Assembly: GCA_900769665.1 (NCBI GenBank)
Contig: CAAGHL010000058.1
Location: 6,651 to 70,650, forward strand
DNA: 64,000 nt
Reading direction: 5' to 3'
DNA from: Clostridia bacterium
GTDB lineage: Bacteria > Bacillota > Clostridia > Christensenellales > CAG-314
Shown piece after piece: positions 17,093 to 60,330 of this stretch (position 1 is the first letter of the stretch; every line of letters starts with the position of its first letter). Position numbers and translations under genes: made by a program. The notes under the pieces were generated by a model. It saw only the letters and a list, made by a program, of their open reading frames with translations. It made no database searches and was not told the origin of the DNA.

Positions 17093-19108
17093 ATGACGGA
17101 AAGAAAATTGCCGTGCTATCCGCTGTTTGTAAAAGACCCCAACTTTTCGCTGTGGAGTAACGACGAGTATCTCAACAAAAACTATCCGCAAACTTGGTTT
17201 GGCGAAAGAAAAAACATTTGCGGTTTTGTCGACGTTAACGGGCAAAAGTATTGTTTTATGGGCAGGACGGACGACTTCACTCCGTACGGTGTAAAGCCTG
17301 CCGAACAAGTGAATTTGCAAGTGACGGCATTTACCACCGAGTACAAGTTTGTTGCGGGCAAAGCTACGCTAGCGATCAAGTTTGTTTCGCCGTTGCCGCC
17401 CGACGACATGGAGCTGATGTCGTTGCCCGTGTGCTACATGGAGTACGAGCTATCGGGCGCCGAGGGCGAAGTGTCGGTGTTTGTGGGCGGAAACGTTGCC
17501 TACAACGACATTCCGCAAACGCAGGACAAACGAGTTGTCGGCGACAGTTTTGCGTTGGACGGCTACGAGGCGGCGGTCATCGGACTTCGTCGCCAACTGC
17601 CGCTAAGCAACAACAACGACGCTTACGGCGCCGATTGGGGCTACTTCTATTTGAGCGGACAACACGCCTACGTAGCCGACGGCGCAAGCCTTGCCGACTA
17701 CTTGAAGTGTAATAACCGCAACATTACTTGCCAAACGGAAGAAAAGTACATTGCAAGCTTCAATACGGCGGCTAGCGGCGTTGTTATGCTGGGCTACGAC
17801 GAAACGGTTGCAATCAACTACTTTGGCAAGTATTTGCAAGGATACTACTTGCAGGAGCACTCGATTTTTGACGCGCTAAAATACGTGCAAGCAAACTACA
17901 GTGCAATTGACAAAAAGTTGGCGGCGTTTGACGAACGCTTGCGTGCCGACGTTGCCGCCAAGTGCGACGGATTTGCCGACGAGTACTACAACGTGCTTGT
18001 GGCTTCGTTGCGTCAAAGCGTTGCGGCACACAAATTAGTGCGTGACGGCGACGACGTGCTGTTTTTGTCCAAGGAGTGCTGGTCTAACGGCAGTATTGCC
18101 ACGGTGGACGTCAGCTACCCGTCCGTGCCGCTGTACTTGCTGTACAACACGGAGCTTGTAAAAGGTATGATGCGCCCGATATTCAAGTTTGCTCGCATGC
18201 CCGTGTGGAGTTTCGACTTTGCGCCGCACGACGTTGGCACATACCCCGTGTGCAACGGGCAAGGATACGGCTTGAAGAAGTCCGTCGAGGCAAAGCTTGG
18301 CACTACGTACAAGCCGCACGACGTTACGACGCGCTTCCCGACGTACATTTTGCCGCAAACCGCCGACGTGTACGACTTTAACATGCAAATGCCGGTGGAA
18401 GAGTGCGCAAACATGTTGGTTATGCTGTATGCGTGCTACCGTTACGACCATGACGACGCATTGTTTGCGGCGAACGCCGATTTGGCGGCAAAATGGGTCA
18501 AGTATTTGGTGGACAACGGCTTGCATCCTGCCAATCAACTTTGCACAGACGATTTTGCAGGGCATTTGGCAAACAATCTAAACCTTGCTGTAAAAGCAAC
18601 CGTAGGTATTGCTTGCTATGCGGAGTTGTTGCGTGTAATGGGCGACAAAAGCGGTGCGGAAAAGTATCGCAAGATTGCCGATGGGTTTGCAAAGGAAATT
18701 ACGGCGTTTGGCTGCAAATTTAGTCATTTGCCCATCACGTGGGACAGTGACGACAGTACGTATTCCTTGAAGTACAACATGGCGTTTGACAAGGTTTTGG
18801 GGCTTGGATTGTTTGCCGATAGCCTTGCCGAGAGGGAGGTAGATTGCTATCTCGACAAGCTCAACGAGTATGGCACGCCGCTGGACAACCGCAAGGAATA
18901 CACCAAGAGCGATTGGCTGGTGTGGGCGGCAAGCCTGACAAACGACAAAGAAAAGCAAGGCAAGCTGATTGCTAGCCTCGACAAGTACCTTCGCACAAGT
19001 CAGGAGCACATCCCATTTGCCGATTGGTACGAAACGAAAACCACCCTGCATCACGAGTTTTTGGCTCGCTCCGTCCAAGGCGGCTGCTTCATGTTGCTAC
19101 TGAAGTAA
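17093..19108 (+). CDS. DUF4965/DUF1793 (glutaminase-A-like, six-hairpin glycosidase-like) protein, cytoplasmic
   Basis: N-terminal YPLFVKDPNFSLWS, central FLSKECWSNGSIATVDVSYPSVPLYLLYNTELVKGMMRPI and C-terminal SDWLVWAASL resemble this family. AGAGGTGA RBS. Confidence 0.7.
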   Translation: MTERKLPCYPLFVKDPNFSLWSNDEYLNKNYPQTWFGERKNICGFVDVNGQKYCFMGRTDDFTPYGVKPAEQVNLQVTAFTTEYKFVAGKATLAIKFVSPLPPDDMELMSLPVCYMEYELSGAEGEVSVFVGGNVAYNDIPQTQDKRVVGDSFALDGYEAAVIGLRRQLPLSNNNDAYGADWGYFYLSGQHAYVADGASLADYLKCNNRNITCQTEEKYIASFNTAASGVVMLGYDETVAINYFGKYLQGYYLQEHSIFDALKYVQANYSAIDKKLAAFDERLRADVAAKCDGFADEYYNVLVASLRQSVAAHKLVRDGDDVLFLSKECWSNGSIATVDVSYPSVPLYLLYNTELVKGMMRPIFKFARMPVWSFDFAPHDVGTYPVCNGQGYGLKKSVEAKLGTTYKPHDVTTRFPTYILPQTADVYDFNMQMPVEECANMLVMLYACYRYDHDDALFAANADLAAKWVKYLVDNGLHPANQLCTDDFAGHLANNLNLAVKATVGIACYAELLRVMGDKSGAEKYRKIADGFAKEITAFGCKFSHLPITWDSDDSTYSLKYNMAFDKVLGLGLFADSLAEREVDCYLDKLNEYGTPLDNRKEYTKSDWLVWAASLTNDKEKQGKLIASLDKYLRTSQEHIPFADWYETKTTLHHEFLARSVQGGCFMLLLK

Positions 19109-20136: not shown

Positions 20137-20165
20137 TTGACAGTCGATGTTTGACAACCTAAAAT
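20137..20165 (+). promoter_or_regulatory. Sigma-70/SigA-type promoter candidate P1
   Basis: TTGACA (20137-20142), 17-nt spacer, TAAAAT (20160-20165). Confidence 0.5.
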
Positions 20166-20218: not shown

Positions 20219-20247
20219 TTGAAACGCTTGTTGTCGTTGTGTAAAAT
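20219..20247 (+). promoter_or_regulatory. Sigma-70/SigA-type promoter candidate P2
   Basis: TTGAAA (20219-20224), 17-nt spacer, TAAAAT (20242-20247), 20 nt upstream of ATG 20267. Confidence 0.45.
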
Positions 20248-20266: not shown

Positions 20267-21853
20267 ATGAAAGAAGTCATATTTGGAAACGTAATAAGAG
20301 ATTTGCGTAAATCTCAACAAATGTCGCAGGAGGAATTTGCCGAAAGCTTAAACGTGAGCAAACAAGCGGTGCAAAAATGGGAAAACGGTGCAAGTATTCC
20401 CGATATTTCTCATTTACTGCTTATTCATGAAAAATTCGGTATTAGCCTCGATAGATTGTTTTTCGGTGCAAGCGAAAACAATGTGCAAGCAATACGTTTT
20501 TTGCCTGTCAATCCAGACTATGCTACCCGTTCGTTTTGGGACGAGTACAGCCAAAATTTGCTTATCGACTACCGACAATCGACGGAGGAAGGCAAAGATA
20601 TTGCCGCATACAAAAGTCTTATCGAATGTGTAGACGGATTGCCGAACGGCAATGCAAAGCACGACATGTCTGACATCATATACCGCTTGATTGCCGATGC
20701 GCCCGAGCGTGACGGGTACTTATTTGTCGAACCCTCCGACTACGACGGCATAGTTGCTTTAAGCAATGCAAAAACCGACTCAAAGCCGTTAAACGTAGAC
20801 AAAAACAAGCTTGAAGGTGCATTTACGGGACGTATCGTCGGTTGCCTTCTCGGCAAACCGGTGGAGGGCGTTACTCGCGAGGGCATACGCGCAATATTGC
20901 GTGCAAGCGACAATTACCCGATAAAGCGATATATCACTACCAATGATATTATCCCCGAAGTGCCTTTTTCCGATTGCTACTGCGTCGATCGGGTTGAAGA
21001 ATACCCGTTTTCCGACGACGACATCGATTACACTGTGCTTGCACAACGTGTTGTGGACAAATACGGTGCCGACTTTACCGCCGAAAATGTAATCGCCACT
21101 TGGTGCGATCTTGTGCCTCGCAATGTATTTTGCACTGCGGAGCGTGTTGCGTTCAAAAACTACACAGACGGTTACATGCCGCCGTACACTGCAATGCACC
21201 AAAACGCTTTTCGCGAGTGGATCGGCGCACAGATACGTGCCGATTACTACGGCTACATTTGCCCCGGCGATCCTTTCACTGCGGCGGCTATGGCATTTCG
21301 CGATGCGTCGGTATCACACACTAAAAACGGCATTTACGGCAGTATGTATGTGGCTGCGTTGATTGCCGTTGCCGCACGTACGTCAAATATGGAGGAAGCT
21401 ATCGGCGAAGCATTGCAATACATTCCTACGACGTCGCGTATGTACAAGGCGATTAACGGCGTGTTGAAGGATTACTCCGGCGGAGTGACGGAACAAAAAT
21501 GTTTCGACAAAATTTTTGCCGAGTACGACGATTCCGACGTGCATTGCTGGCTGCATGTAATATGCAACGCAATGATTGTAACTGCTGCGTTGTTGTACGG
21601 CAATAAGGATTTTACTCGCACATTGTCGCTTGCCGTATCGGCAGGATACGACACCGACTGCAACGGTGCTACTTGCGGTTCGGTATTGGGCATGATGTGC
21701 GGCATGGAGTGTATTGCGCCCTCTTGGACAGCTGTATTGCGCGGCGGTACACGTACCGACGTACGAGCAAGTGAAAACGTAAAAATTACGGAGTTTGTTC
21801 AAACTGCCGTAAAACATGCAAACATTATAAACAAGGAGGCGAAGAACAAATGA
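20267..21853 (+). CDS. XRE-family HTH fused to an ADP-ribosylglycohydrolase (ARH/DraG-fold) domain (528 aa)
   Basis: HTH MSQEEFAESLNVSKQAVQKWENGASIPD. ARH-family hallmarks GCLLGKPVEG, SDDDIDYT and GYDTDCNGATCGSVLG. AAGGAG lies 6 nt before the ATG. Confidence 0.85.
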   Translation: MKEVIFGNVIRDLRKSQQMSQEEFAESLNVSKQAVQKWENGASIPDISHLLLIHEKFGISLDRLFFGASENNVQAIRFLPVNPDYATRSFWDEYSQNLLIDYRQSTEEGKDIAAYKSLIECVDGLPNGNAKHDMSDIIYRLIADAPERDGYLFVEPSDYDGIVALSNAKTDSKPLNVDKNKLEGAFTGRIVGCLLGKPVEGVTREGIRAILRASDNYPIKRYITTNDIIPEVPFSDCYCVDRVEEYPFSDDDIDYTVLAQRVVDKYGADFTAENVIATWCDLVPRNVFCTAERVAFKNYTDGYMPPYTAMHQNAFREWIGAQIRADYYGYICPGDPFTAAAMAFRDASVSHTKNGIYGSMYVAALIAVAARTSNMEEAIGEALQYIPTTSRMYKAINGVLKDYSGGVTEQKCFDKIFAEYDDSDVHCWLHVICNAMIVTAALLYGNKDFTRTLSLAVSAGYDTDCNGATCGSVLGMMCGMECIAPSWTAVLRGGTRTDVRASENVKITEFVQTAVKHANIINKEAKNK

Positions 21854-23034
21854 ACAAAAAGCAAAAAGTTGCGGCCATTGTAGTCGCATGCGTTTTGTTG
21901 ACATGTTCGGTTGTCGCATTAGTCGTTACGGCTGTTGCGTCTACGGCGGATACTTTTGTGGTGCTGACCCCGTATTGGAAGGAAAACTTCGAGCGTTTTG
22001 CGACAAATCAATCGTATGTCAAACAAGCGTTGTATCTCAATGGTGCAAACGGCATAATCACTGCGGAAAAAAGCAAGGTGATAACGGGCGAGCGTAGTTT
22101 GCTTGTTAGCGGTGACGAAGCGGAAAACGTTGTCGACATCAAGTACGGTACTCTCAATTTGATTGACGGCTCGTACACGCTTAGCATGAACGTGCGTCCG
22201 ATCAAGGCTACGTCATTGACGATTGCCGTACGTAAAAACTATTTGACGGAAAACGCCGATAGTTTTCTCGCTCGGAAACAACTTGCCCTAACGACAAATG
22301 AGGCAGGCGCGGTTACTGCTGTTGCTGACAACGGTATACAAGTGGGTAAAGCGGAAGTCAAGTCGGAGGACGGCGTAGTGTCGCTGACGATAGAGTTTAC
22401 AAAAAACAATACCGACGCATTTGTGTACGTTGCTTTTGGCGGCGAAGGCGAAACGAGTATGGTGATCGACGACATAGTCGTCTACAATCATGCCACATCT
22501 CAAAAGGTGGCAATCAAAGATATCGACGAAAATTACAACAATGCAGACGTCAATCAATCTGTTTTTCAGATGACACATTTTTGGTGTAACTTCGGCGATA
22601 TGATCTGGGACACCAACAACTTCAACAATACAAACAGTGTATTGTACAAGGGTACGTATTACAATTCCAACGGTGACAATATTTTCCTTGGCGGATTGAC
22701 TGCCGACGAATGGACAACCAAGGGTAACACGACCTATCGTTACCAAGTAGATATCGGATTGGAAGATATTTCCACATTGGTATTTACCACTCTCGACAAT
22801 CGCGGTACGGGACAAACATACAGCGAGATTACGTATAGTCGCGGCAGCTGGATAGTGACTGCGAAGGGTGGTATAACGAACTTTACCGCCGAAAAAATGA
22901 ATGGTTTTTGGCGTTTGTCTTGGAATAGACTTACTTCGGACATAGGTAAAGACGAACACTACATGTTTGCTACAAGCGGCGAAGGCGTCGAAGGCAAAAT
23001 TTGGATAGACAATTTTGTCGTTGCGCATTTTTAG
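21850..23034 (+). CDS. N-terminally membrane-anchored protein with two CBM-like beta-sandwich modules (394 aa)
   Basis: ATGA overlap with the regulator stop. AAGGAGG RBS. TM segment VAAIVVACVLLTCSVVALVVTAV. Two modules each end in a CBM4/9-style strand (MVIDDIVVY, IWIDNFVVA). Confidence 0.75.
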   Translation: MNKKQKVAAIVVACVLLTCSVVALVVTAVASTADTFVVLTPYWKENFERFATNQSYVKQALYLNGANGIITAEKSKVITGERSLLVSGDEAENVVDIKYGTLNLIDGSYTLSMNVRPIKATSLTIAVRKNYLTENADSFLARKQLALTTNEAGAVTAVADNGIQVGKAEVKSEDGVVSLTIEFTKNNTDAFVYVAFGGEGETSMVIDDIVVYNHATSQKVAIKDIDENYNNADVNQSVFQMTHFWCNFGDMIWDTNNFNNTNSVLYKGTYYNSNGDNIFLGGLTADEWTTKGNTTYRYQVDIGLEDISTLVFTTLDNRGTGQTYSEITYSRGSWIVTAKGGITNFTAEKMNGFWRLSWNRLTSDIGKDEHYMFATSGEGVEGKIWIDNFVVAHF

Positions 23035-23044
23035 GAGAATGACT

Positions 23045-26000
23045 ATGAAAAAAATAACTTCAATAATATTGGTTTGTGCGTTGCTGATGGCAGTTATCGC
23101 CGTCCCGACCGCGTTGTTGTTTGACGATTGGACAAACGTGGCTTATGCGGCAATCAATGTCAAGTCTACGCTTTCTGCCGAAACTTTTACTTCTGAAGAC
23201 GGGACAAAATTACCGTACAGATTTTACAAGCCCGACGATTACAGCGAAACGAACAGTTACAAGCTATTGCTGTTGCTGCATGGCAAGGACGAACGCGGCA
23301 TGGACAACGAAGCACAAGTGACTCGGCGTGACGCTATGCCTTTTGTCCAAAAAATACTTGCGGACAAACAGTTGAAAAAACAATATTTCATTGTAGTGCC
23401 GCAATGTTCTACGACGGACGTATGGGCAAACGTGGCGGCAGACGGCAGTTACGTTTACAATGCCGACGAACAAACCGCCGCGCAAAAAGCCGTCTTCGAG
23501 TTGTTGATGGACATTGTTAAAAAATATTCCGTGGATATGGCACGTTTGTACGTGACAGGCTACGACAACGGCGCATACGGTGTGTATGATATGCTTGCTC
23601 GATATCCGGGATTGTTTGCGGCGGCACTGCCTATGTCGGGCGGCGCAGACGTCAACCAATACAAGGCAGCGGAAGAAACCGCATTGTGGGCATTCCACAG
23701 CGCAGACGATGTCAGCGGCGGTTACGGACAAAACTTGGCAATGGTGCGCAAGTTGGAATCCATCGGCGCAGGCGTATTGTATACTGAATTCAAGACCGTA
23801 GGTCACAATGCATGGAAGCAAGGTTACACTAACGAAAACGCATTCGAGTGGATGGACGCTCAATGTCGTCGAAATGTGTACTACCAACGCCGTTTAATTA
23901 CTCCCGACAACACGACGAATGGTAAAAATTACACGTTTTTACGTAACGTAGCTAAATTCGGCGCACACAAATCCAACGTAATGGCTCCTACGGGTGGCGG
24001 CGACAAGGACTTGTTTAAGGCAATGACCGATGGTTTGATTACCGCTTCTTACGACACATACACAGGCGATTACACCGACCACGATGATTACTTCGGCTAC
24101 GAATTTGCGTCGAATTACACCTTCAAAAAGGTGGTATTTACAAGCGGCGCAGTGGCTAACGGCGGAGGTTTGTTCGGCGGCGGTGCAAAGGTGCAAGCAC
24201 TTGTAAACGGACAATGGACGGACGTAGTGTTGACGGGTGAAAATCCCTATCCTGTGTTGGGTAACGGCGAAGCAATCGACGTTGAAACCTACAAGGGCTT
24301 TACCGCATATACATTCGAGTTTGAGCCCATTCAAGCTAATGGTATTCGCATTGTCGGAAAAGCCGGCGGTAACGAGCGTTGGACGTCCGTTTCGGAAATG
24401 GAAGTTTATGCCGAATCGACGGTTTTAGACGGCAACATGGCGGCAATCGGAGCACCTAATGTGGACGAAGTGTGGCAATGGAGTACCGACTACTCCAAGG
24501 GACGTGACATTACGCTGATTATCAACGGCGTACTCAATGACAGTTTCGACAACTACGGTTGGAATTTCCAACACGATACAGGTATTTACTATACCTACAA
24601 CGATCTTCACTATTTCAACAAATTGGTGTACACCGAAGGACAGCACTGGGACGAGGGAGGCGGTTGGTTTGCCGAAGGCGTAACGATAAAGGTGCGCAAA
24701 AACGGTGTTTGGACGGCAGTGGAGCTTGAAGAGAGTAGCTCCGATTATCCCGTTGTCGCACAAGAAGAAAAGGCGCCCTTCGACGGTTTTGTTACTTATA
24801 CCTTCAACTTTAACGCAACCGAGGGCGATGCGGTAGGTATCTTCGGCAAGGCAGGCGGCAATCAACACTTTGTGTCTTGTGCGGAACTTGCCGTGTATTC
24901 TGCGGACGTGTCCCCATACGAGGAACCGACAGTCTCCGTCAAGCCTTTCGAGTACTGGCAAATGGCAACAAACGTTACTTACAAGGGTACAGCAATCGTG
25001 TCGGAAACCAATCCTCAAGGCATCGGTTCTCGCGATTACGCAACGGTAATGAACAATGGTTTCTACAATGCCGCAGGTGACAGTTACGACACTTACAACG
25101 GCGATTTCAGTAGACACGACGCATGGTTCGGGTACACTTTTGCCGAGGAACAAATTTTTAACAGTCTTATCTACCAAGTCGGAACATGCTTCGACGGCGG
25201 CGGTATGTTTGCAGGTGGCGCGCGTATTCAAGTGCGTGTAAACGGTGTGTGGACGGACGTTCCCCTGACCACCTCAAATCCCTATCCCGTACTTGCCGAG
25301 GGCGCAAAAATCGACATTAATCAACACCCCGGTTACGAAATTTACCAATTCTTCTTTGCTCCTACCAAGGGCGACGGCGTGCGCGTAATAGGTAGTGCGG
25401 GCGGTGATCAACACTGGTCTTCCGTTGCGGAATTGGTTGTATTTGCAGTAGAAAACGTTACCGATGGTAATGTGAGCGGTACGGCATTGCCCATGGCAAG
25501 CACCGCGCCTAACGGAAGTTCCTGCAACCCTGATCTCGGCGTCATTGTGGACGGCGAAACAAGCGGCGGAAATAAGAATCAATACGACACTTATCAACCC
25601 AATAAGACGGCATGTCAAGAGTGGTATGCGCTAAGCTTCGGACAAACGCACACGTTTACTCAACTTCGCTTTACGGAAGGTATGCACTTTGCTACCCAAG
25701 GCGGTTGGTTCAGCGGCGGAGTAAAGGTTCAGGCTTGCGTTGACGGCGTTTGGAAGGATGTCGAATTGACTACTGCTAACCCCTATCCCGTAATTGAAGG
25801 AACGGCGGATATCGCCGAAAGTCTTTACTCCGCATTTACCACATATGTATTCGATTTCAAGCCGATTACGGCGACGGCGGTACGTATCGTCGGCAATGCG
25901 GGCGGTCTGTCGTACTTTACTTCCTGTGCGGAATTAAGCGTTACTTGTACCGATGTGGACAACTACGAAGGCAAACTGTCCAATTACAAATTTGTTTACG

Positions 26001-29000
26001 ACAAGTCTGTTACCTACACTGACGAAAAAATCCGCGACCTTATCGAAGCGGGTTGGCTTGGTCAAATGTACGGTGTAGTGTGGGGCGCACCCATCGAATT
26101 CAGTTACAAGGGACGTATGGTTCCCGATGAGGAAATACCCGACAGATTGTCTTTAAATCTCAACGACGCATTTGCGCAAGATGACCTATACGTGGAATTG
26201 CCATTTATCAACGCTCTTAATACGGAGGGCATCGACGTATCGGTGGAAACACTCGGAGATTACTTCCGTGATACGGCATTCCCCTTGTGGCACGGAAACG
26301 ACGTGGCGCGTACCAACTTAAATGCGGGTATTCCTGCGCCGTTGTCCGGTAGTTATTTGTACAACTCTTGTTGTGACGACATTGACTGGCAAATCGAAGC
26401 TGACTTTGTCGGTATGATGAATCCCGGTGCGGTTAATCGCGCAGTGGACTTGGGTTTCCGTTACGGACATGTTATCGGTTACGGTGATGGCGCATACGGA
26501 GGGTCGCACGTTTCGGCAATGCATGCCAAAGCGTATGTGGCTAAAAACGTAACTTCCGTTGTTGTTACGGGTATTCAATCGGTCCCCAAGGGAACAAAGT
26601 ATCGTGCGATACTCGACGATGTGTACGATATGTACGTCAATGACGTCAGCTTTGTAGATGCATGGCAACGCATCGAAGACAAGTGGGTAGGCGACGACAG
26701 ATGTCCTCGTGAAGGCTTCGGTCCTACGGCGGCATTCAACATCGACGCCAAACTTGCAGGCGGTTACATCGTAATGGGTATGTTGTACGGTTTGGGCGAC
26801 TTGGAGGAATCCATGCGTCTTGCCATCAAGTGCGGACAAGACAACGACTGTACGCCAAGCACAATCGGTAGTATACTCGGCAACTACTACGGAACTTCCG
26901 TATTCCGCAAGAGTCTTGTGAACAAAATAGACTACAACAACAAATTTTTGTACACTGACGATACGTTACATACGGCTATCGACAAAGTGTTCGAGCTTGC
27001 TAAACTACAAATCGTACAGGCAGGCGGCAAGGTGGAAAACGGAGTGTGGACATTGCCCGAAGAACAAGAAATAGTCACTCCTGAAGTGGAACAGTGGCCG
27101 GATATGCCGAGTATGGACGTTTCCCTCGGTCAAGCCGACAAAAACGTTACGGGCAAAGTCGTGTCTTATCACAAAGACGGTATCGAATCGGTTACTTGGG
27201 ATTTTGGCGACGGTACGATTATGTCTACCAAAGACAGTGTTCAAGGAAATAAGCGCGTTACCGCGGGCGAACAAACCAAGGAAATCAAACCTATCGACAA
27301 AAACAAAACCTACAACATATTGTTTATAGGCAACAGTTACACCTACTACAACCATATGACGGGCATGTTTAAGCGTATTGCCGAAAGTATGGGATACAGT
27401 GTGGATATAGACCAAATAGTACACGGCGGTCACCGTTTGGGCGAGTACGCCGATCCTAACGACAACGCAAATACGGGCGACTACGACGGTAGTGGCAAGG
27501 ACGTTTACGCCGCACTTACCGGAAACAAAAAGTACGACTACGTGTTTATACAAGAGTATGACGCAGGCGCAATGACATCGACGTCCAACTTCGATGTGGC
27601 GGCAACCACGTTAGTTCAACTTATTCGTCAACATGGCGCAACGCCCGTCTTGTATGAAACATGCGGCAAGCATCCTGACGACTACTGGGTGAGTAAGTTG
27701 GGTACTACCAACTTCAAGATGACGTGGGATATTGCTCGTGCAAACCAACAAGTTGCGGACAAACTCAATGTGGCGGTGTCCTACGCAGGACGTGCGACGT
27801 ATTTGGTATTCCAGGACAACAAAGTCAACAATATCGATTTGTACCACACCGACCTCAATCACCCGTCGTTTGCAGGCAGCTACCTGATCGCACTTACTCA
27901 TTTTGCAACAGTGTTCGGTTGCGATCCTACGGAAGTAAAATACGTGCCTACGCCGTCGGATGACATCATCACAAGTTACGACAAGACATGTTCGACCGTC
28001 GGTCAAAACATTACTTCGGAAGTAGCGTCAACGTTAAAGCAGGCTGCAAAAGACGCAGTGTTCTTTACTCCGCAAATACCGTCCTCTTACGAAGGCATAG
28101 AAAGCGGAACGGAACTCGGCGGAACGTATGTAAACGTAAATCACACCTACAAACTGTTGGGTAATTACACTGTAACGCTTACGATAGTCGGCAAAAACGG
28201 CACCGTTGCTACGCGAAAGTTTGACGTAAACGTCACTCTTAGCAACAATCTCGCTTCCGTCGGTACGCCGATCGTGTCGGTAGAAAAGCCCGAAGGCGTC
28301 GGCAGTAAGGACATCGGAGTAATTTGCGACGGAGTGTACGGCAACGGTAATTCCACACAATACGACACTTACAAGGGTGTTAAGACCAACGACTACGATT
28401 ATTTTGGGTATTTGTTCGCCGCGCCTCAGGTAGTCAATACCGTGGAATACACGGCAGGCACTTACTTCGCTAACGGCGGAGGCTGGTTTGCCAACGGCGA
28501 TGTGAAGATTCAAGCATTGCTAAACGGCACTTGGACGGACGTTGCATTGACAAACGACCCGGGCTATCCCGTAGGCGACGATCACACTATGGGCAAACAG
28601 TATGCTACTTACACCTTCAAGTTTGCCGATACTACTTGCGACGGAATACGTATTTACGGACGCGCAGGCGGACCGCAAAAGTTTGCATCGTGTTCGGAAT
28701 TGAAGGTATTCGGAGTGGTTACACCGAGCTTCGCGGCGGACAATGTAGACGTTAAAGTCAATGATGGTGCAAAACTTACGTTTGACAGCAAGAATCTGTA
28801 CGTGACGGAAGTTAAACTGAACGACGCTGTGATAGACATTGCAGACTACACGCTTACGGCCAATACGTTGACGTTTGACTCGGCGTTTTTGGACAAGCAT
28901 ATCGGATTAAACACAGTAACGTTGGTGTTGGAAAACGGTCAAACTATCCAAACGACATTGAATGTCGCTACCGACGGCACAAAACTTGCAAATAAGATTA

Positions 29001-29488
29001 CCCAAGCAAAAGCCATAAACGGCGACAAGTACACCGATTACAGCTTTGACATGCTTCAACAAGCAATTGTCGCAGCGGAAACGATTGCCGCAAAACAAGG
29101 CGCAACGCAAGCTGAAATCGACAACGCAGTAGAGGAATTGCAGGCGGCAATAAACAGTCTCGTAAGCAGGGAAACGGCGGCACGTGCTGCTTTCACTAAG
29201 GCTGTAAACGACATTGCCCAGGCCAAGAGCAAGGCGGAAATGTTTGACAAGATCAACGTCGCAATCAACGCATACAAGCAAGTGACAGACAAAGCGGCAG
29301 TGGCGGAAGATTACGCCAAGTTGCAAGCGGCAGTCGGTCTTTACAACGAGTATGTAACAACCGTCAACACCGAAGTGACGACGGCAAACGACGTGGCAAC
29401 AAAAGTATTCGTAACGGCAGGCGGCGTGACCGCTGTGTTGGCTTGCGTGTACGTAGCAATCAAAAAACTGTTGGGAGGTGCGCTGTAA
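23045..29488 (+). CDS. 2147-aa multidomain surface protein: signal peptide, alpha/beta-hydrolase-like domain, 4 CBM-like modules, ARH-fold domain, PKD, SGNH/DUF4886-like esterase, PKD, 5th CBM-like module, Ig-like domain, FIVAR, C-terminal TM anchor
   Basis: AGGAGA lies 6 nt before ATG 23045. Signal MKKITSIILVCALLMAVIAVP...AYA. Motifs are listed in the domain features below. FIVAR-like YTDYSFDMLQQAIVAAETIAAKQGATQAEIDNAVEELQAAINSL. Terminal TM VTAGGVTAVLACVYVAIKK. Confidence 0.9.
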   Translation: MKKITSIILVCALLMAVIAVPTALLFDDWTNVAYAAINVKSTLSAETFTSEDGTKLPYRFYKPDDYSETNSYKLLLLLHGKDERGMDNEAQVTRRDAMPFVQKILADKQLKKQYFIVVPQCSTTDVWANVAADGSYVYNADEQTAAQKAVFELLMDIVKKYSVDMARLYVTGYDNGAYGVYDMLARYPGLFAAALPMSGGADVNQYKAAEETALWAFHSADDVSGGYGQNLAMVRKLESIGAGVLYTEFKTVGHNAWKQGYTNENAFEWMDAQCRRNVYYQRRLITPDNTTNGKNYTFLRNVAKFGAHKSNVMAPTGGGDKDLFKAMTDGLITASYDTYTGDYTDHDDYFGYEFASNYTFKKVVFTSGAVANGGGLFGGGAKVQALVNGQWTDVVLTGENPYPVLGNGEAIDVETYKGFTAYTFEFEPIQANGIRIVGKAGGNERWTSVSEMEVYAESTVLDGNMAAIGAPNVDEVWQWSTDYSKGRDITLIINGVLNDSFDNYGWNFQHDTGIYYTYNDLHYFNKLVYTEGQHWDEGGGWFAEGVTIKVRKNGVWTAVELEESSSDYPVVAQEEKAPFDGFVTYTFNFNATEGDAVGIFGKAGGNQHFVSCAELAVYSADVSPYEEPTVSVKPFEYWQMATNVTYKGTAIVSETNPQGIGSRDYATVMNNGFYNAAGDSYDTYNGDFSRHDAWFGYTFAEEQIFNSLIYQVGTCFDGGGMFAGGARIQVRVNGVWTDVPLTTSNPYPVLAEGAKIDINQHPGYEIYQFFFAPTKGDGVRVIGSAGGDQHWSSVAELVVFAVENVTDGNVSGTALPMASTAPNGSSCNPDLGVIVDGETSGGNKNQYDTYQPNKTACQEWYALSFGQTHTFTQLRFTEGMHFATQGGWFSGGVKVQACVDGVWKDVELTTANPYPVIEGTADIAESLYSAFTTYVFDFKPITATAVRIVGNAGGLSYFTSCAELSVTCTDVDNYEGKLSNYKFVYDKSVTYTDEKIRDLIEAGWLGQMYGVVWGAPIEFSYKGRMVPDEEIPDRLSLNLNDAFAQDDLYVELPFINALNTEGIDVSVETLGDYFRDTAFPLWHGNDVARTNLNAGIPAPLSGSYLYNSCCDDIDWQIEADFVGMMNPGAVNRAVDLGFRYGHVIGYGDGAYGGSHVSAMHAKAYVAKNVTSVVVTGIQSVPKGTKYRAILDDVYDMYVNDVSFVDAWQRIEDKWVGDDRCPREGFGPTAAFNIDAKLAGGYIVMGMLYGLGDLEESMRLAIKCGQDNDCTPSTIGSILGNYYGTSVFRKSLVNKIDYNNKFLYTDDTLHTAIDKVFELAKLQIVQAGGKVENGVWTLPEEQEIVTPEVEQWPDMPSMDVSLGQADKNVTGKVVSYHKDGIESVTWDFGDGTIMSTKDSVQGNKRVTAGEQTKEIKPIDKNKTYNILFIGNSYTYYNHMTGMFKRIAESMGYSVDIDQIVHGGHRLGEYADPNDNANTGDYDGSGKDVYAALTGNKKYDYVFIQEYDAGAMTSTSNFDVAATTLVQLIRQHGATPVLYETCGKHPDDYWVSKLGTTNFKMTWDIARANQQVADKLNVAVSYAGRATYLVFQDNKVNNIDLYHTDLNHPSFAGSYLIALTHFATVFGCDPTEVKYVPTPSDDIITSYDKTCSTVGQNITSEVASTLKQAAKDAVFFTPQIPSSYEGIESGTELGGTYVNVNHTYKLLGNYTVTLTIVGKNGTVATRKFDVNVTLSNNLASVGTPIVSVEKPEGVGSKDIGVICDGVYGNGNSTQYDTYKGVKTNDYDYFGYLFAAPQVVNTVEYTAGTYFANGGGWFANGDVKIQALLNGTWTDVALTNDPGYPVGDDHTMGKQYATYTFKFADTTCDGIRIYGRAGGPQKFASCSELKVFGVVTPSFAADNVDVKVNDGAKLTFDSKNLYVTEVKLNDAVIDIADYTLTANTLTFDSAFLDKHIGLNTVTLVLENGQTIQTTLNVATDGTKLANKITQAKAINGDKYTDYSFDMLQQAIVAAETIAAKQGATQAEIDNAVEELQAAINSLVSRETAARAAFTKAVNDIAQAKSKAEMFDKINVAINAYKQVTDKAAVAEDYAKLQAAVGLYNEYVTTVNTEVTTANDVATKVFVTAGGVTAVLACVYVAIKKLLGGAL
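23177..23885 (+). other. Alpha/beta-hydrolase (esterase/PHB-depolymerase-like) domain with an altered nucleophile elbow
   Basis: LPYRFYKPDDY...LLLLLHGKDERGMDN; elbow YVTGYDNGAYG where G-x-S-x-G is expected; downstream FHSADD and GHNAW. Confidence 0.6.
23935..25955 (+). repeat. Four tandem ~160-aa galactose-binding/discoidin-like (putative CBM) modules
   Basis: Recurrent pattern YDTYxGD...D(A/Y/W)(F/Y)GYxF...GGG(W/L/M)FxGG(A/V)K(V/I)Q...G(V/Q)WTDV...NPYPV...TYxFxF...G(I/V)R(I/V)(V/I)GxAGG...(S/C)(V/A)(S/A)E(M/L). Approximate boundaries 23935-24412, 24425-24903, 24955-25450 and 25465-25955. Confidence 0.75.
26040..27020 (+). other. ADP-ribosylglycohydrolase (ARH/DraG-fold) domain inside the surface protein
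   Basis: EAGWLGQMYGVVWGAPIEF, AQDDLYVELPF and AIKCGQDNDCTPSTIGSILGNYYG. The central block WQIEADFVGMMNPG parallels GAQIRADYYGYICPG in the regulator at 20267-21853. Confidence 0.75.
27300..27960 (+). other. SGNH/GDSL-type (DUF4886-like) esterase domain
   Basis: Block I YNILFIGNSYTYYN, YDYVFIQEY, and block V DLYHTDLNHPSFAGSYL. Flanked by PKD-like segments (VTWDFGDGT at ~27190; YTVTLTIVGKNG at ~28160). Confidence 0.65.
28238..28718 (+). repeat. Fifth copy of the CBM-like module
   Basis: QYDTYKGVKTNDYDYFGYLF...GGGWFANGDVKIQALLNGTWTDV...YATYTFKF...DGIRIYGRAGGPQKFASCSELKVF. Confidence 0.75.
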
Positions 29489-30123
29489 TGAACAAAAGAC
29501 TACTTGCGGCACTGCTGTGCGTGGTGCTTGCGTTGAGCGTATTTGCTCTTGTCGCTTGTGTGAAAGACCCTGACAACCCCGATAAACCTAATCCCGACAA
29601 CCCTCCGCAACCTACCAAGACGGTGTATGACACCCTTAACGAACTTGCGGCAAAACCGCACGACAACGGCAAGCTGACGGTTGTTACAACGGTTGGCGAA
29701 GACGTACTTACAAGTACTTACACGTTGACGACTAACGCCGACGGAGTAAAGGTGGAGTATGCAATACAAACTCTTGCTAATTTGTCCTTTGAAGAAACCA
29801 CAACGGAACGCATAGTGACTACAAGCGGCAGTTACGTTGTTAAAGACGGCAAAGTGGTACAACAGAACGGTCAAAACTGTGACATAGCGTTGGAAACGGT
29901 GTCTGCACAAGGTATCAAGTTTGACAAAGCTTACTTTGCCGAAGTTAAGGAGTCTGACGGCAAGTTTGCCGCAAAGGTGACGGATGTAAAAGGCTTCCTC
30001 GGCGAAGTTTCCGCAACGGATATGGCGGTGGAAGTGACCTACACCGCACAAGCAATAACTAATCTTGTAATAAACTACAAGACGACAAACGCAACGGTTA
30101 CTATGACCTACGCTTTTGCGTAA
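29488..30123 (+). CDS. Small lipoprotein of unknown function (211 aa), last gene of the ARH operon
   Basis: TAATG stop/start overlap with the giant gene. GGGAGG lies 9 nt upstream. Lipobox FALVAC followed by a Pro/Asp/Asn-rich linker, then a beta-rich body. Confidence 0.8.
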   Translation: MNKRLLAALLCVVLALSVFALVACVKDPDNPDKPNPDNPPQPTKTVYDTLNELAAKPHDNGKLTVVTTVGEDVLTSTYTLTTNADGVKVEYAIQTLANLSFEETTTERIVTTSGSYVVKDGKVVQQNGQNCDIALETVSAQGIKFDKAYFAEVKESDGKFAAKVTDVKGFLGEVSATDMAVEVTYTAQAITNLVINYKTTNATVTMTYAFA

Positions 30124-30678: not shown

Positions 30679-33672
30679 ATGACAAATAAGTACGAACGCA
30701 TAAAAAAATTGGTTTCGGTGTTGCAAAACAATCTTTGTCGCAAGCAAATGCAAGTGACGGACATTTTGTATGCGCACACCGACTACAAAACAAACAATGA
30801 CTTGCCTGACAAGTCTGCGCTTGTGCCCTTTAACGACGGCGTTTGGGGCGGTACACCTGACGATCACTATTGGTTTCGTGCCGAGGTGGACGTAGAAAAC
30901 TTACCCGAGTGCATTGCGGAATTGCTTGTGACTACCGGCTACGACGGTTGGAACGAGTGCAATCCGCAAGTTGTGTGCTACGTTGACGGAATAATGACGC
31001 AGGCGCTTGATCGCTTTCATACGACGATGAGTATCGGCGCAGGGCATCACGTGCTGTATTTTTATGCCTACACCGGTATGCGGCTTACGCTGAAGTTGGA
31101 TTTCAAACTTACTTTGCGTTACGTAGACATAGATGCCGAACGCCTGTATTACGATTTGGTTGTGCCGACCGAAGCGTTGGATTTTATGCAGGAAAACGAG
31201 AAGCCATATTTTGACACAATCGACTATCTCAATAAAGCGTTGTGTCTGGTAGACTTTATGAACGTCGGTAAGCCTACGTTTTTTGATACTTGCAAAGTTG
31301 CCGCGAACTACTTTGAACACGAATTTTACGATACGTATTGCAAAATCGGCGACACAAAAGTGGCTTGTGTGGGACATACTCACATTGACATTGCTTGGCT
31401 TTGGACGATACGCCAAACGCGTGAAAAGGCGCAACGCAGTTTTGCCACGGTGCTGTACCTTATGGACAAGTATCCCGATTACAAATTTATGTCGTCGCAG
31501 TGCTACTTGTACAAGGCTGTCAAAGAGGAAAATCCCGAGCTGTACGAGCGTATTAAACAACGTATTGCCGAAGGTCGTTGGGAAGTGGAAGGCGCAATGT
31601 GGGTGGAAGCCGATTGTAATCTCCTTAGCGGCGAAAGTTTTGTTCGTCAAATACTGTACGGCAAGCGTTTTATGCGTGACGAATTCGGCGTTGACAGCAA
31701 AGTGTTGTGGTTGCCTGACGTATTCGGTTACAGTGCCGCATTGCCGCAAATACTCAAGTTGAGCGGCGTTGATACATTTGTTACAAGCAAAATCGGTTGG
31801 AACGATACCAACATGATCCCGTACGACTTGTTCGATTGGCAAGGTGTCGACGGAAGTAAGGTGTTTACCTATTTCCTTACAGCGCAAAACGCTCACCGCG
31901 ACGGACACATTGACCGTTACAGCACCTATAATGCCGAGGCTAATCCGTCGCAGGTTATCGGCTCGTACAATCGCATGCAACAAAAGGACATTACCGACGA
32001 AACGGTTGTTACATACGGTTACGGCGACGGAGGCGGTGGTCCGACCAGTTGGCACATCGAGTACATAAGGCGTATGGCAAAGGGTATACCTTGTGTGCCT
32101 GCAACCAAGTTTAGCACTGTTGCGGAGTTTGTGTCCGACGTCAAACAAAACGTCAAAAGGGCGGGGCGCTTGCCCAAGTGGACGGGGGAATTGTACCTCG
32201 AATTCCACCGCGGAACATATACATCCATTGCCAAAAACAAACGCAACAATCGCAAGGCTGAGTACCTTATGCAAAACTTGGAGTTATTGAGTGTGCTTGC
32301 CGACAAACTGCGCAACGTGGCGGTGCCACAATCGTGGCTTACCGAGCATTGGCAAACAATGCTGACAAATCAGTTCCACGACATTATCCCCGGTTCTTCC
32401 ATTACCGAGGTTTACGACCTTACAGACAAGGAATACGCCGAGTTGTTTGAAAGCGGCAGTAAGTTGCTGACGGAACGCATAAACGCAGTGGTACGTGACA
32501 CTAATGACTGTTTAAGTGGCGAAAACGTGACGGTATTTAACCCTAACGGTTTTGCTGTCGACGGCTATGTGCGTATTTGCGACAAGTATGTATATGTGCA
32601 AAACGTGCCGAGCAAAGGCTTCGGTGCACGGCAAATCATTGCTCCTAAAAGCGGTGTAAAGACGACGGAATACACGTTGGAAAACAAGTACTTCCGTATT
32701 AAGTTTGACCGAAAGTACAACATCGCGCAGGTTTACGACAAACGCAGTAAGCGCAACGTGTTGAAAGGCAAGGCGGAGTACGTCGCATACGAGGACTACC
32801 CGATTTGTTTCGACGCATGGGAATTACGCGATTACTATACAGAAAAGACATATCCCGTGCAGTTTGTGTCGGTTGTTGATGTGGACTTTGGTGGCAAAAA
32901 AGGCAAGCGCATTGTCAAACGTGTCGGCGACAGTACGATAACCACCGACGTGTGCTTGTACGAAATGTCCGACAGAATCGACTTCGACACAACGTTGGAT
33001 TGGCAAAACAACAACGTGCTACTCAAGGCAGTGTTCCCCGTGGACGTAAATGCGACTGCAGCGACGTGCGATATACAATTCGGCAACGTTCAACGCCCGA
33101 CGGTGTGTAATACAAGTTGGGACAAGGCGAAGTTTGAGTTTTGTGCGCACAAGTACGTCGACGTGTCGGAGGGTGACTACGGCGTTGCGTTGATGTCCGA
33201 TTGTAAGTACGGCTACTCGGCTCGCGACAACGTGCTTACCGTGTCGCTTGTTAAGTGTACGACCTACCCCAACGACTCGGTGGACAAGGGCGAGCATAAG
33301 TTTACGTATGCGCTGTGTCCGCACATCGGCGACGTGGCGCACAGCAAGGTTATGCAACAAGCAATGTTGCTAAACAATCCGCTTGTGGCTGTCGACGGAC
33401 AAACGGAAGATATATCGTTTGTGGCGGTTGACTGCGACAACATCGTCATCGATGCCGTCAAGCCTGCCGAGAACGGAAACGGCGTTGTGGTGAGGCTGTT
33501 TGAAAACAACAACTGTACAACCAATTGCACGCTGGCTTTCGGCTTGGACGTGGCAAGCGCAACTATATGCGACTTGTTGGAAAACGATTTGCAATCCGTT
33601 GCTGTGGCAAACAATAAAATTAAGCTTACACTAAAACCGTTTGAGATTGTCAGTATAAAGGTACAATTGTAA
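30679..33672 (+). CDS. GH38 alpha-mannosidase (997 aa, cytoplasmic)
   Basis: GHTHIDIAWLW metal motif, EGRWEVEGAMWVEADCNLLSGES, LWLPDVFGYSAALPQIL and LYLEFHRGTYTS. GGAGA RBS. Confidence 0.92.
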   Translation: MTNKYERIKKLVSVLQNNLCRKQMQVTDILYAHTDYKTNNDLPDKSALVPFNDGVWGGTPDDHYWFRAEVDVENLPECIAELLVTTGYDGWNECNPQVVCYVDGIMTQALDRFHTTMSIGAGHHVLYFYAYTGMRLTLKLDFKLTLRYVDIDAERLYYDLVVPTEALDFMQENEKPYFDTIDYLNKALCLVDFMNVGKPTFFDTCKVAANYFEHEFYDTYCKIGDTKVACVGHTHIDIAWLWTIRQTREKAQRSFATVLYLMDKYPDYKFMSSQCYLYKAVKEENPELYERIKQRIAEGRWEVEGAMWVEADCNLLSGESFVRQILYGKRFMRDEFGVDSKVLWLPDVFGYSAALPQILKLSGVDTFVTSKIGWNDTNMIPYDLFDWQGVDGSKVFTYFLTAQNAHRDGHIDRYSTYNAEANPSQVIGSYNRMQQKDITDETVVTYGYGDGGGGPTSWHIEYIRRMAKGIPCVPATKFSTVAEFVSDVKQNVKRAGRLPKWTGELYLEFHRGTYTSIAKNKRNNRKAEYLMQNLELLSVLADKLRNVAVPQSWLTEHWQTMLTNQFHDIIPGSSITEVYDLTDKEYAELFESGSKLLTERINAVVRDTNDCLSGENVTVFNPNGFAVDGYVRICDKYVYVQNVPSKGFGARQIIAPKSGVKTTEYTLENKYFRIKFDRKYNIAQVYDKRSKRNVLKGKAEYVAYEDYPICFDAWELRDYYTEKTYPVQFVSVVDVDFGGKKGKRIVKRVGDSTITTDVCLYEMSDRIDFDTTLDWQNNNVLLKAVFPVDVNATAATCDIQFGNVQRPTVCNTSWDKAKFEFCAHKYVDVSEGDYGVALMSDCKYGYSARDNVLTVSLVKCTTYPNDSVDKGEHKFTYALCPHIGDVAHSKVMQQAMLLNNPLVAVDGQTEDISFVAVDCDNIVIDAVKPAENGNGVVVRLFENNNCTTNCTLAFGLDVASATICDLLENDLQSVAVANNKIKLTLKPFEIVSIKVQL

Positions 33673-33673
33673 A

Positions 33674-36600
33674 ATGAACAATTTGCTCGAGCGCGCACAA
33701 AAGTTGTTGCGCGAACTTAACAACAGAACAGTAGTTGCGCAAACAGCAATTACCGACATCAAATACTTGCCGTGTGATTACAAAACGGACAACATTTTGC
33801 CCGAGTTGTCTGCTATGCAAAATTTTGGCGGAAAGTGGGGCGGTGCAAACGATACTCACGCTTGGTTTGCCTTCGACATTGACGTGCCGAGCGGCGACAA
33901 TATACGGCATGAAGTGTTTGTTGACAGCGGCGTAAATGGTTGGGACTTGTCCAATCCACAATTTTTGGTGTATGTTGACGGCAAAATCGCCCAATGTTTG
34001 GACACTAATCACCGCAGTTTTGTGGTTGGCGAGGGCAATCATACGGTATATTTGTACGCTTACGCCGGATACCAAATTTCGCCGTTGTTTGCGGCGGACT
34101 TTCCGCTGGAAATCTTCGACTACAACAATCCGCTGACACTGTCGGCAACGCTACAGGCGGTGGACATTTGCGTGAAAACGCTGGCAAACGATGTGTTTGT
34201 AATGCTAAATACTTTGTCGGCAATAAACGTTAATACCAAACAGTATGCCGACATATTGAGGTACGTCAACACTGCGCTTAACATGGTAGACTTTGTCGAT
34301 GTTAGATTAGACGACTTTGGCGAATGTTGCAAAAAAGCACATACGTATCTAAAAAACGAGTACTTTGTTAAGTATTGTAAACGCGGAAACACAAGCGTTT
34401 CCTGCATCGGGCATACGCACATCGACGTGGCGTGGCTGTGGCCCGTGCGCCAAACTCGTGAAAAGGCGCAACGTAGTTTTGCAACGGTGCTTGCGCTGAT
34501 GGATAGATACCCGAGCTACAAGTTTATGTCGTCGCAGTGCTACTTGTACCAAGCGGTCAAGGAAGAAGCTCCCGAACTGTACGAGCGCATTAAGCAACGT
34601 GTTGCCGAAGGACGTTGGGACGTGGAAGGCGCAATGTGGTTGGAAGCCGACTGTAACTTAATAAGCGGCGAAAGCCTTGTACGGCAAATATTGTACGGCA
34701 AACGATTTATGAAACGGGAGTTTGGCGTAGACAGCAAAGTGCTGTGGTTGCCTGATGTGTTCGGATACAGCGCCGCATTGCCGCAAATACTCAAACAAAG
34801 CGGCGTGGAAACGTTTGTTACAAGCAAAATCAGTTGGAATGATACTAACGTGTTGCCATATGATATGTTCCGTTGGAAAGGGCTTGACGGTAGCGAGGTG
34901 TTTACATACTTCCTTACCGCACCTGCCGATGCCAACAACCCCAAGGATATACACACCAACTACAATGCTATTGCCAATCCCGTAGACTTTTTGCGTACGT
35001 ACAACCGTATGCAACAAAAGTCGTTGACAAATGAAGTATTGATGGACTACGGCTACGGTGACGGCGGTGGCGGACCTACAGCGCAATTTATCGAGAATAT
35101 CGAGCGCATGCAGTGCGGCGCACCGAATTTCCCTTATACTAAGTTCGAGCGTGCGTCGGATTTCTTTGCACGTATACGAAAAAAAGTGTACGATAACCCC
35201 GAATTGCCGTGTTGGACGGGCGAGTTGTATTTGGAGTATCACCGTGGAACGTACACATCCGTTGCTAAAAACAAGCGCAACAATCGCCGCGCAGAATACA
35301 CATTGCAAAATCTTGAAAAATTGTTTGTGCTTGCAAATAAACTTGGCGGTGTGGAGTACCCATGCAAGTGGTTTGAAGAAATGTGGCAAATGGTGCTTAC
35401 AAACCAATTTCACGACATTATCCCCGGTTCGTCCGTTACCGAAGTGTACAACGTCACCGACCGCGAATACGCCAAACTGTTTGACGAAGCAAAAGCGCAT
35501 TACGACAGATGTATGTCGGCAATTTTGCCATACGTATCCAAAAATTGCGTACTAAACCTGTGCAGTATGCCGCTTGACGGATATGTAAACGACGGCGAAA
35601 AGTTTGTTTATGTCGAGGGCGCAAAGGGCAATGCAGTCAGTCCTGTTGCGGCAAAGCCTAGCAACGATTCTGTCAAAACTTCCGCATACATATTGGAAAA
35701 CAAGTTTTTCCGTATTAGGTTCGATCGCAACTACGACATTGAGGAAATTTTCGACAAACGTGCCAAACGTAACGTACTTAAAGCAAAGGCGCAACTGCGT
35801 TCGTACGAGGACTACCCGAACATGTACGACGCATGGGAATTGCGCAACTACTATGCGGAAAAGCAGTACGACCTCGAGTTTGTATCGGCAACGGATGTCG
35901 ACTTCGGTGGCAAAAAAGGGAAACGCATTGTCAAAAGAATTGGCGAATCCACTGTGACTACCGACATTTGTTTGTACGATTACGTCGACCGCATTGACTT
36001 CGATACAACGCTCGATTGGCAAACACCGCATTTAGTACTCAAAACGCTGTTTCCGCTTGACGTCAATGCTCACACTGCAACTTGCGACGTGCAGTTTGGT
36101 AACGTTGCTCGCCCGACAACTTGCAATAACAGTTGGGACGAAGCCAAATTCGAGTTTTGCGCGCACAAGTATGTGGATATTTCCGAAGGTAACTTCGGCG
36201 TTGCGCTACTAAACGACTGCAAGTACGGCTACTCGGCACGTGACAACGTGTTGTCATTGACATTGGTTAAGTGCAGTACAAGCCCGTCGGACTGCGTGGA
36301 CAAAGGCGTACACAAGTTTACTTACTCGTTGTATCCGCACGTCGGCGACGTACGTCACTGTGACGTGTACAAACATGCGGCAATGCTAAACAATCCGCTT
36401 GTGTTGGTTGACGGAACGGCGGAAGGCGGCAACGGCGTAAGCCTTGTTTCGTGCGACAAAGACAACGTTATTGTGGATACCGTCAAGTTTGCCGAAGACG
36501 ATGATGGCGTGATAGTGCGGTTGTTTGAAAACAACAACTGTACCACTAATTGCACTTTAACATTCGGTCTGGATGTGTTGAACGCAGTAAAGTGTGACTT

Positions 36601-45983: not shown

Positions 45984-46067
45984 TTGGCATATTTAGCTGC
46001 CGAGTATTGCCGTTAGGCATGACAATTACGACATTTTATGCGGCATTACGTCGCACATAAGGAAAAC

Positions 46068-60265: not shown

Positions 60266-60330
60266 TAACATAGGAAGTTATCGATTAAAGCATTGGCTTG
60301 TTACCGATGCAATCGATTGGAGAAAAATGT

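Follow-up and report, generated by a model that had tools for sequence, protein, structure and literature searches.

A multi-modular surface protein with a predicted ADP-ribosylglycohydrolase-fold catalytic domain in a glycan-foraging gene neighborhood of a Clostridia bacterium

What reaction does a large surface protein with lectin-like modules carry out if no glycoside hydrolase (GH) or polysaccharide lyase (PL) can be recognized in it? The question is raised by a gene at positions 23045–29488 of a 64,000-nucleotide stretch of contig CAAGHL010000058.1 from a Clostridia bacterium; this whole stretch is referred to as the window. Our best explanation as a whole, held with moderate confidence, is that the product, a protein of 2147 amino acids (aa), is a hydrolase of many modules that a gut-type Clostridia bacterium displays on its surface, anchored in the membrane. 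Its catalytic heart is predicted to be a secreted di-metal enzyme with the fold of ADP-ribosylglycohydrolases (ARH). Five discoidin-like modules would serve in targeting, a nested SGNH domain would be an accessory, an EstA-like domain (Est) would have been repurposed, and a fusion of a helix-turn-helix (HTH) domain to a second ARH domain, encoded upstream, would be in control, a division of labor that we regard as reasonably probable. From fusion partners and gene context, we infer cleavage of a glycan or glycoconjugate rather than of an ADP-ribosyl linkage. The gene and the parts of its product are as follows.

23045–29488, + strand: 2147-aa surface protein, whole open reading frame (ORF); orthologs at 99% and 79% identity, ratio of nonsynonymous to synonymous divergence (dN/dS) roughly 0.1
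23045–23152, + strand: signal peptide or N-terminal hydrophobic segment (MKKITSIILVCALLMAVIAVPTALL), by inspection only
23183–23872, + strand: EstA-like alpha/beta-hydrolase fold with Asp at the nucleophile elbow; 3DOH alignment, comparison of relatives, dN 0.121
23939–24421, 24425–24910, 24962–25456, and 25460–25957, + strand: four tandem modules, M1–M4; hidden Markov model (HMM), AlphaFold2 (AF2) and Foldseek matches to CBM32/discoidin, PF00754 below threshold for M3 and M4
26009–27049, + strand: predicted ARH-fold catalytic domain; PF03747 at 78 bits, AF2 and Foldseek, clade profile, lowest dN
27077–27220, + strand: N-terminal half of a PKD domain, to WDFGDGT; PKD_4 positions 27–50, alignment to the relative P0003, clade profile
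27221–28132, + strand: insertion of ~305 aa nested in PKD; P0003 alignment, SGNH core 27311–27952, GNS 27329–27337, DLNH 27851–27862
28133–28237, + strand: C-terminal half of PKD (HTYKLLGNYTVTLTIVG...); PKD_4 positions 48–84, P0003 alignment
28238–28723, + strand: fifth module, M5; HMM, positional counterpart of the relatives' post-PKD module, best match P0003_M2 (46%)
28733–29389, + strand: Ig-like domain (28733–28954), FIVAR (28979–29161), and helical stalk (29162–29389); weak Pfam matches
29399–29467, + strand: C-terminal transmembrane (TM) anchor and KK tail (VFVTAGGVTAVLACVYVAIKKLLGGAL), by inspection

The ORF starts with an ATG at 23045, preceded by an AGGAGA ribosome-binding site, and its stop codon is at 29486–29488. 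Orthologs include a cluster of 52 sequences at 99% identity and one protein at 79% identity, relative to which all values of dN are given. The dN is low throughout the protein and increases from ARH (0.054) to SGNH (0.077), Est (0.12), M1–M4 (0.13–0.20), and the Ig-like, FIVAR, and stalk region, which evolves fastest (0.25–0.48). Scans of the whole protein and of its segments reproduced the domain order given in an earlier note on this DNA, except that the PKD pieces and the N-terminal esterase are reinterpreted below, and they bear out its description of a surface-anchored, multi-modular protein without a classical GH or PL. Among the Pfam and NCBIfam models for GHs and PLs, none matched the whole protein at E ≤ 1 or its segments at E ≤ 5. 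All stretches longer than ~40 aa can be assigned to a recognized fold, and no unassigned gap is roomy enough for a hidden GH or PL domain. A divergent classical GH or PL concealed in a module or a linker would make this an ordinary CBM32-rich glycosidase of the kind known from Clostridium perfringens, for which CBM32-like repeats (here from Foldseek matches), FIVAR, and an anchor are typical. Because domain coverage leaves no space, we rejected a hidden GH domain and consider this explanation extremely improbable.

The ARH domain is located at aa ~989–1335 and matches Pfam PF03747 with 72–78 bits (cutoff 26.2; E 1e-21). Its di-metal motifs, PIEF (E1018), QDD (D1046 and D1047), and QDNDC (D1266, D1268, and C1269), are all intact. 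The AF2 model of ARH and PKD (pLDDT 87, pTM 0.86) has an all-alpha ARH fold, and Foldseek with the ARH model placed ARH3, DraG, MJ1187, and ARH1 on top (E ~1e-6; target-normalized TM-score 0.6–0.73; identity 10–15%). A search of the PDB with the single sequence of the surface ARH had no match; MJ1187, DraG, and ARH3 were reached only by profiles of the clade to which it belongs. A clade-only profile matched MJ1187 with an E of 6e-13 and aligned ptE, DD, and DsDC with the canonical motifs GDALGxPtE, TDDT, and GGDTDS. The clade is invariant at residues E1018, D1046, D1047, D1266, and D1268 (n = 35 and n = 11 sequences). ARH is also the most conserved domain of the protein, being 93% identical to that of the more distant ortholog. 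The earlier note had singled out the ARH fold as the sole candidate for a glycosidase-type bond-cleaving unit, which agrees with the empty GH and PL scans, with ARH–PKD as the conserved core, and with the lowest dN.

Features shared with the ADP-ribosylglycohydrolase superfamily (PF03747: ARH1, ARH3, DraG, Tri1, and MJ1187) are the all-alpha fold, the supra-threshold Pfam score, and the three di-metal motifs. Unlike that superfamily, members of the clade have Cys where Thr/Ser would follow DxD, another invariant Cys within DRCP, and the further invariant motifs LWHxN, DDIDWQIE, and NIDAK. The ligand-adjacent Cys may confer a different metal preference or form a disulfide. Inactive ARH-fold proteins exist, jellyfish crystallin J1 being an example, and if the ARH here were likewise dead and served as a scaffold or in ligand binding, the whole protein would be an adhesin. 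FIVAR, Ig-like, and lectin-like modules together with a TM anchor look adhesin-like; the Pfam matches in the stalk are weak (Shr-like_HID E 1e-3, CBM_X2 E 7e-3, FIVAR 28.4 bits against a cutoff of 29.2) and no LPXTG motif was seen on inspection of the C-terminus. However, the metal-ligand residues are all invariant across phyla, the dN of ARH is lower than that of any other domain, and a dockerin-bearing relative is encoded within an operon of enzyme and transport genes, making a dead domain very improbable.

Comparative data and the lowest dN identify ARH–PKD as the conserved core of the 2147-aa protein, and this pair defines a large clade whose members mostly have signal peptides. Co-occurrence was counted in the best 149 of 839 representative proteins that bear the modules: ~30 of the 149 also have an ARH of this clade (phmmer E down to 1e-150), usually in the order ARH, a PKD of ~100 aa, and then one or more modules (M). 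Four representatives have an Est–M–ARH–PKD–M core in common. The architectures of relatives therefore identify the window protein as this core with three more modules, an inserted SGNH domain, and a stalk with FIVAR and TM parts. Relative P0020 (M–M–M–M–ARH–PKD–M) has no esterase or other catalytic domain, and its gene adjoins that of an AraC regulator. Searches with ARH only yielded more than 200 proteins at E ≤ 1e-20 from many phyla, mostly consisting of ARH and PKD and 480–570 aa in size. An N-terminal signal-like segment is present in 97 of 110 complete ARH–PKD relatives, and many have a lipobox. Many of the stand-alone ARH–PKD lipoproteins (P0169–P0190) have a long poly-Asp linker between the lipobox and ARH.

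Matches to ARH in the genome collection were at best 44–45% identical and came from Ligaoa and from metagenome-assembled genomes (MAGs) of Eubacteriales. A 2395-aa protein of Ligaoa zhengdingensis has the organization LamG–ARH–PKD–LamG–ARH–PKD–LamG, followed by a stalk and a TM segment. In a Eubacteriales MAG from the Hadza gut (L008, 8804–12169), a gene located between those for a sugar solute-binding protein (SBP) and a GH123 enzyme encodes LamG–CarboxypepD_reg–ARH–PKD–LamG–dockerin. The ARH fold in this locus appears to be a component of a cellulosome-type (possibly “mucinolysome”-type) assembly. The neighborhood of P0051 was left out because its contig is too short.

The modules are what would bring such an enzyme to its substrate. 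The HMM places four in tandem at aa 299–459, 461–622, 640–804, and 806–971, and the fifth at aa 1732–1893. They are 32–45% identical in pairwise comparisons and share 27–28 invariant columns, within which lie the signatures YDTY, GGGWF, YPV, and AGG...S..E that had been noticed earlier. Foldseek with a moderate AF2 model of a module (pLDDT 68) returned almost exclusively CBM32 or discoidin structures among its top 50 matches (E ~3e-4 to 4e-3; TM-score 0.4–0.5). At the sequence level, no module of the window reaches the PF00754 cutoff of 28.2 bits (M4, 24.2; M3, 19.4; M1, M2, and M5, no match). Across the module family, PF00754 is matched by 7 of 30 members (best E 2e-9), the related PF22633 by two of the 30, and no other Pfam family by any. 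A profile of the five modules found only spurious matches to BurrH repeats in the PDB, a profile of 30 family sequences found no significant sequence match there, and a word-indexed homolog search with the five-module alignment had no match. An exhaustive HMM search, in contrast, detected the module in 839 representative proteins at E ≤ 1e-3 and in 525 at E ≤ 1e-10, often in tandem. Elsewhere, its partners are PQQ-type dehydrogenase (GSDH), galactose-oxidase-like, rhamnogalacturonan I (RG-I) lyase, and LamG domains, and this variety fits an accessory binding role.

Because of the AF2 and Foldseek results, the partial matches to PF00754, the want of a PDB sequence match, and the number of representatives, we class the modules as a distinct and widespread sequence family, predicted to be at the periphery of the F5-8-type-C/CBM32 superfamily; the fold is probably not new. 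A beta-sandwich is thus the predicted likeness to CBM32 and F5-8 type C domains (PF00754 and PF22633), to which some family members have matches, whereas the modules of the window differ in having a signature of their own (QYDTY, GGWF, YP, and GxxGG..F.S..E) and in scoring below the PF00754 threshold, three of the five without any match. The proposal of an undescribed family of carbohydrate-binding modules (CBMs) therefore stands with respect to a coherent family and falls with respect to the predicted discoidin fold, which is a known one. Likewise, a clean mapping to CBM32 was not found in sequence, yet the top structural matches are to CBM32 and discoidin. Recent internal duplication was considered as an artefact that could have produced the repeats and was rejected, given the divergence among the modules and given that M5 is nearest to the post-PKD module of relatives.

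The hydrolase folds at either side of ARH raise the possibility that deacylation is the main task of the protein, with the chemistry left to SGNH and the alpha/beta-hydrolase and with ARH in an accessory or binding role. The alpha/beta-hydrolase domain (aa 47–276) is clearly homologous to Thermotoga maritima EstA (3DOH; E 5e-37), a CE1-like esterase, and matches 3WYD (E 6e-15) and Pfam Esterase (E 1e-5; 25.6 bits against a cutoff of 22). HSADD and VGHNAW align with the EstA segments fhaeDD and pHGSW, which we take to contain the triad acid and His, and both residues are kept. Conversely, the GLSMG of EstA aligns with GYDNG (23558–23572), so the nucleophile Ser is replaced with Asp, and in alignments to EstA, P0003, and P0032 the domain is without a G-x-S-x-G nucleophile Ser. 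GYDNG is fixed in close orthologs: the 79% ortholog has it, as does each of the 12 full-length members of the 99% cluster. In relatives, the domain is intact, degenerate, or absent: P0003, P0032, and P0040 retain G[LF]SMG, but P0036 has neither the Ser nor the His. The domain is under purifying selection, with a dN comparable to that of the modules. Given this fixation and the purifying selection, the GYDNG fold may hydrolyze with Asp as its nucleophile or serve in binding; its most likely role is binding or noncanonical hydrolysis, rather than that of a classical esterase.

The SGNH domain appears to be located within PKD. The two pieces of the latter match PKD_4 at positions 27–50 and 48–84 with 17.8 and 22 bits (each below the cutoff of 27), both are colinear with the uninterrupted PKD of P0003, and the gap between them corresponds to aa 1393–1696 (~305 aa). 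A clade profile also matches PKD structures of collagenases (E 3e-11). Because its halves are colinear with the PKD of P0003, what had been read as two separate PKD-like domains is better described as one, apparently split by the SGNH-bearing insertion. Relative to P0003, P0020, and the ARH–PKD family, the nesting of SGNH in a PKD loop is a domain insertion. The SGNH-like domain (aa ~1423–1636) has FIGNS at 1427–1431 (GNS 1429–1431) and DLNH at 1603–1606, and it matches PDB 4S1P (E 2e-10), whose LGNS and DGVH align with blocks I and V. It shares GNS block I and DxxH block V with SGNH hydrolases of the DUF4886 and 4S1P type but differs in being nested in PKD and in scoring 16.6 bits to DUF4886, below the cutoff of 26.7. 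The motif blocks reported earlier are intact, and the likeness to DUF4886 is a sub-threshold one in Pfam.

Intact GNS and DxxH, good conservation of the SGNH core, and purifying selection on Est are in line with deacylation as the main activity. However, among the relatives examined, the SGNH insertion is present only in the window protein and its 79% ortholog, Est has an Asp nucleophile here and is degenerate or absent elsewhere, and ARH is the sole domain common to all architectures and the most constrained. We therefore consider a mainly deacylating protein quite unlikely. Two esterase folds are present, as the earlier note had it, but the N-terminal one is without its Ser nucleophile, the other is a lineage-specific insertion, and the term deacylating machine was an overstatement.

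A predicted ARH-fold enzyme as the catalytic heart can also be viewed in the context of its gene, which is the third of a four-gene unit with the following additional features.

20137–20165 and 20219–20247, + strand: two best sigma-70-like promoter matches of the region, upstream of the unit, at 11 of 12 and 10 of 12 consensus positions; consensus match only
20267–21853, + strand: cytoplasmic fusion of XRE-type HTH_3 and ARH, 528 aa; Pfam HTH_3 E 4e-15, ADP_ribosyl_GH E 1e-46
21850–23034, + strand: N-terminally anchored beta-rich protein of 394 aa, family not recognized; no Pfam match, 64% identical copy in the ortholog locus (L024)
29488–30123, + strand: putative lipoprotein of 211 aa with an LVAC lipobox; weak DUF7096 match, 62% identical copy in L024

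The genes are tightly packed, with the HTH–ARH gene overlapping that of the 394-aa protein in ATGA and the stop codon of the 2147-aa ORF overlapping the start of the lipoprotein gene in TAATG. The small genes for the 394-aa and 211-aa proteins are translationally coupled to their neighbors. All four genes are present in L024. The HTH–ARH protein is 22% identical to the surface ARH and retains the metal motifs, including DxDC; a search of the PDB with its single sequence had no match. Full-length HTH–ARH homologs (43–84% identity) are encoded just upstream of surface ARH genes in L003, L004, L008, and L024; in the three Eubacteriales loci other than L024, those immediately upstream are 43–46% identical. 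Counting the window, this arrangement is found in five loci. The recurrence of the same fusion suggests that HTH–ARH proteins are a class of regulators that sense or cleave the product of the surface enzyme, the one in the window being a putative regulator or sensor of the unit.

The remainder of the window encodes GH97, GH31 with PA14, a GtaA-like protein, two GH38 alpha-mannosidases, GH29, GH20, two DUF4838 proteins, AraC, and ABC sugar transporters, which is a repertoire for foraging on glycoproteins and glycans. The two GH38 genes are in tandem (30679–36700) directly downstream of the unit, and a GH38 of 35% identity is encoded within 6 kb of an ARH–PKD gene in two distant MAG loci (L012 and L018). 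Just upstream of the unit, a DUF4964–DUF5127–GtaA six-hairpin (“glutaminase A”-type) protein (17093–19108), presumably a glycosidase and not a glutaminase, adjoins the GH31+PA14 gene. Six large ORFs (479–1330 aa) have no Pfam match at E ≤ 1e-3 or 1e-4 (12749–14491, 36714–38855, 42092–43843, 46038–49127, 53841–57833, and 60298–61737) and are possible candidates for undescribed glycan-active or glycan-binding proteins.

Gene context also bears on whether the surface ARH carries out ADP-ribose chemistry outside the cell, with the modules doing no more than tethering it to glycoprotein surfaces. It could de-ADP-ribosylate surface proteins of the host or of bacteria, or scavenge ribose or ADP-ribose from NAD-derived compounds or from the poly(ADP-ribose) of lysed cells. 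To our knowledge, all characterized ARH-fold enzymes (ARH1, ARH3, and DraG) act on ADP-ribose conjugates and not on glycans, and the metal motifs here are those of an intact ARH. Additionally, ADP-ribosylglycohydrolase genes are present in ribose-utilization loci of Bacteroidetes (bioRxiv 10.1101/574913). Stand-alone ARH–PKD lipoproteins occur outside clusters for carbohydrate-active enzymes (CAZymes), and the genes P0177, P0210, and P0171 of three environmental genomes are in uninformative, non-CAZyme contexts. Conversely, identity to ARH1, ARH3, and DraG is only 10–15%, with sequence similarity restricted to the metal motifs; fusions to lectin-type modules are repeated, and one to a dockerin occurs beside sugar SBP and GH123 genes; and no ribokinase, nucleosidase, or phosphodiesterase was found among window ORFs of at least 250 aa. 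On balance, extracellular ADP-ribose chemistry is a live but unlikely alternative.

The precedent of ADP-ribose conjugates and the uninformative contexts nevertheless count against cleavage of glycans, as do three other considerations. Glycan binding by the modules is read from fold alone and from a model of moderate quality (pLDDT 68, TM-score 0.4–0.5), the signal-peptide and TM assignments are heuristic, and saturation of dS between the two orthologs leaves the dN/dS ratios only approximate.

If the ARH-fold enzyme does cleave glycans or glycoconjugates, the parts of the system could act in succession. The five discoidin-like modules would keep the enzyme attached to a complex glycan or glycoconjugate, and the nested SGNH esterase would remove O-acyl groups. 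The di-metal ARH site would then hydrolyze a glycosidic-type linkage, which, by analogy to known ARH enzymes, would be at the anomeric carbon of a sugar whose neighboring hydroxyls chelate the metals; ribofuranosyl or other furanosyl residues, or a cis-diol sugar, would be candidates. An ABC transporter would import the product, and the cytoplasmic HTH–ARH protein would sense or further process it and control the four-gene operon. More tentatively, the ARH–PKD clade may constitute a new family of metal-dependent extracellular glycoside or glycoconjugate hydrolases, with a cognate module family and a dedicated HTH–ARH product-sensing transcription factor. We put the chance of this joint reading at somewhat under even; if it held, CAZy would in effect gain both a GH family and a CBM family or subfamily, first seen in a glycan-utilization locus of gut Clostridia.

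Should an ARH fold prove to cut extracellular glycans or glycoconjugates, it would extend the repertoire of carbohydrate-active enzymes by one catalytic fold and by a metal-dependent mechanism. Hundreds of unannotated “ADP-ribosylglycohydrolase/PKD” lipoproteins in many phyla would gain a function, and attention would be drawn to a class of substrates that current CAZyme annotation of gut microbiomes misses. The module family, with at least 839 representative proteins, would then be a useful marker for such enzymes, and the HTH–ARH partner points to sugar-responsive regulators of a new type. The alpha/beta-hydrolase with its Ser-to-Asp change under selection is an example of domain repurposing, and SGNH within PKD is one of domain insertion.

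Relative to known ADP-ribosylglycohydrolases, which are cytoplasmic, proteins of the clade are secreted or displayed on the surface, always have PKD after ARH, and can be fused to lectin-like modules or dockerin. We found no paper on a secreted or lectin-fused ARH-fold enzyme or CAZyme in the literature searched. The closest parallels in organization are NagH, NagJ, and NanJ of C. perfringens, which likewise combine a signal peptide, discoidin/CBM32-type modules, Ig-like and FIVAR domains, surface retention, and one catalytic domain, with the gene located among others for glycan degradation. The window protein differs in that its modules are mostly below the PF00754 threshold, its anchor is a C-terminal TM helix, and an ARH fold occupies the catalytic slot instead of GH84, GH33, GH89, or similar. 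It is therefore a candidate for a modular surface protein of the CAZyme type with a catalytic fold that is, within the literature searched, unprecedented.

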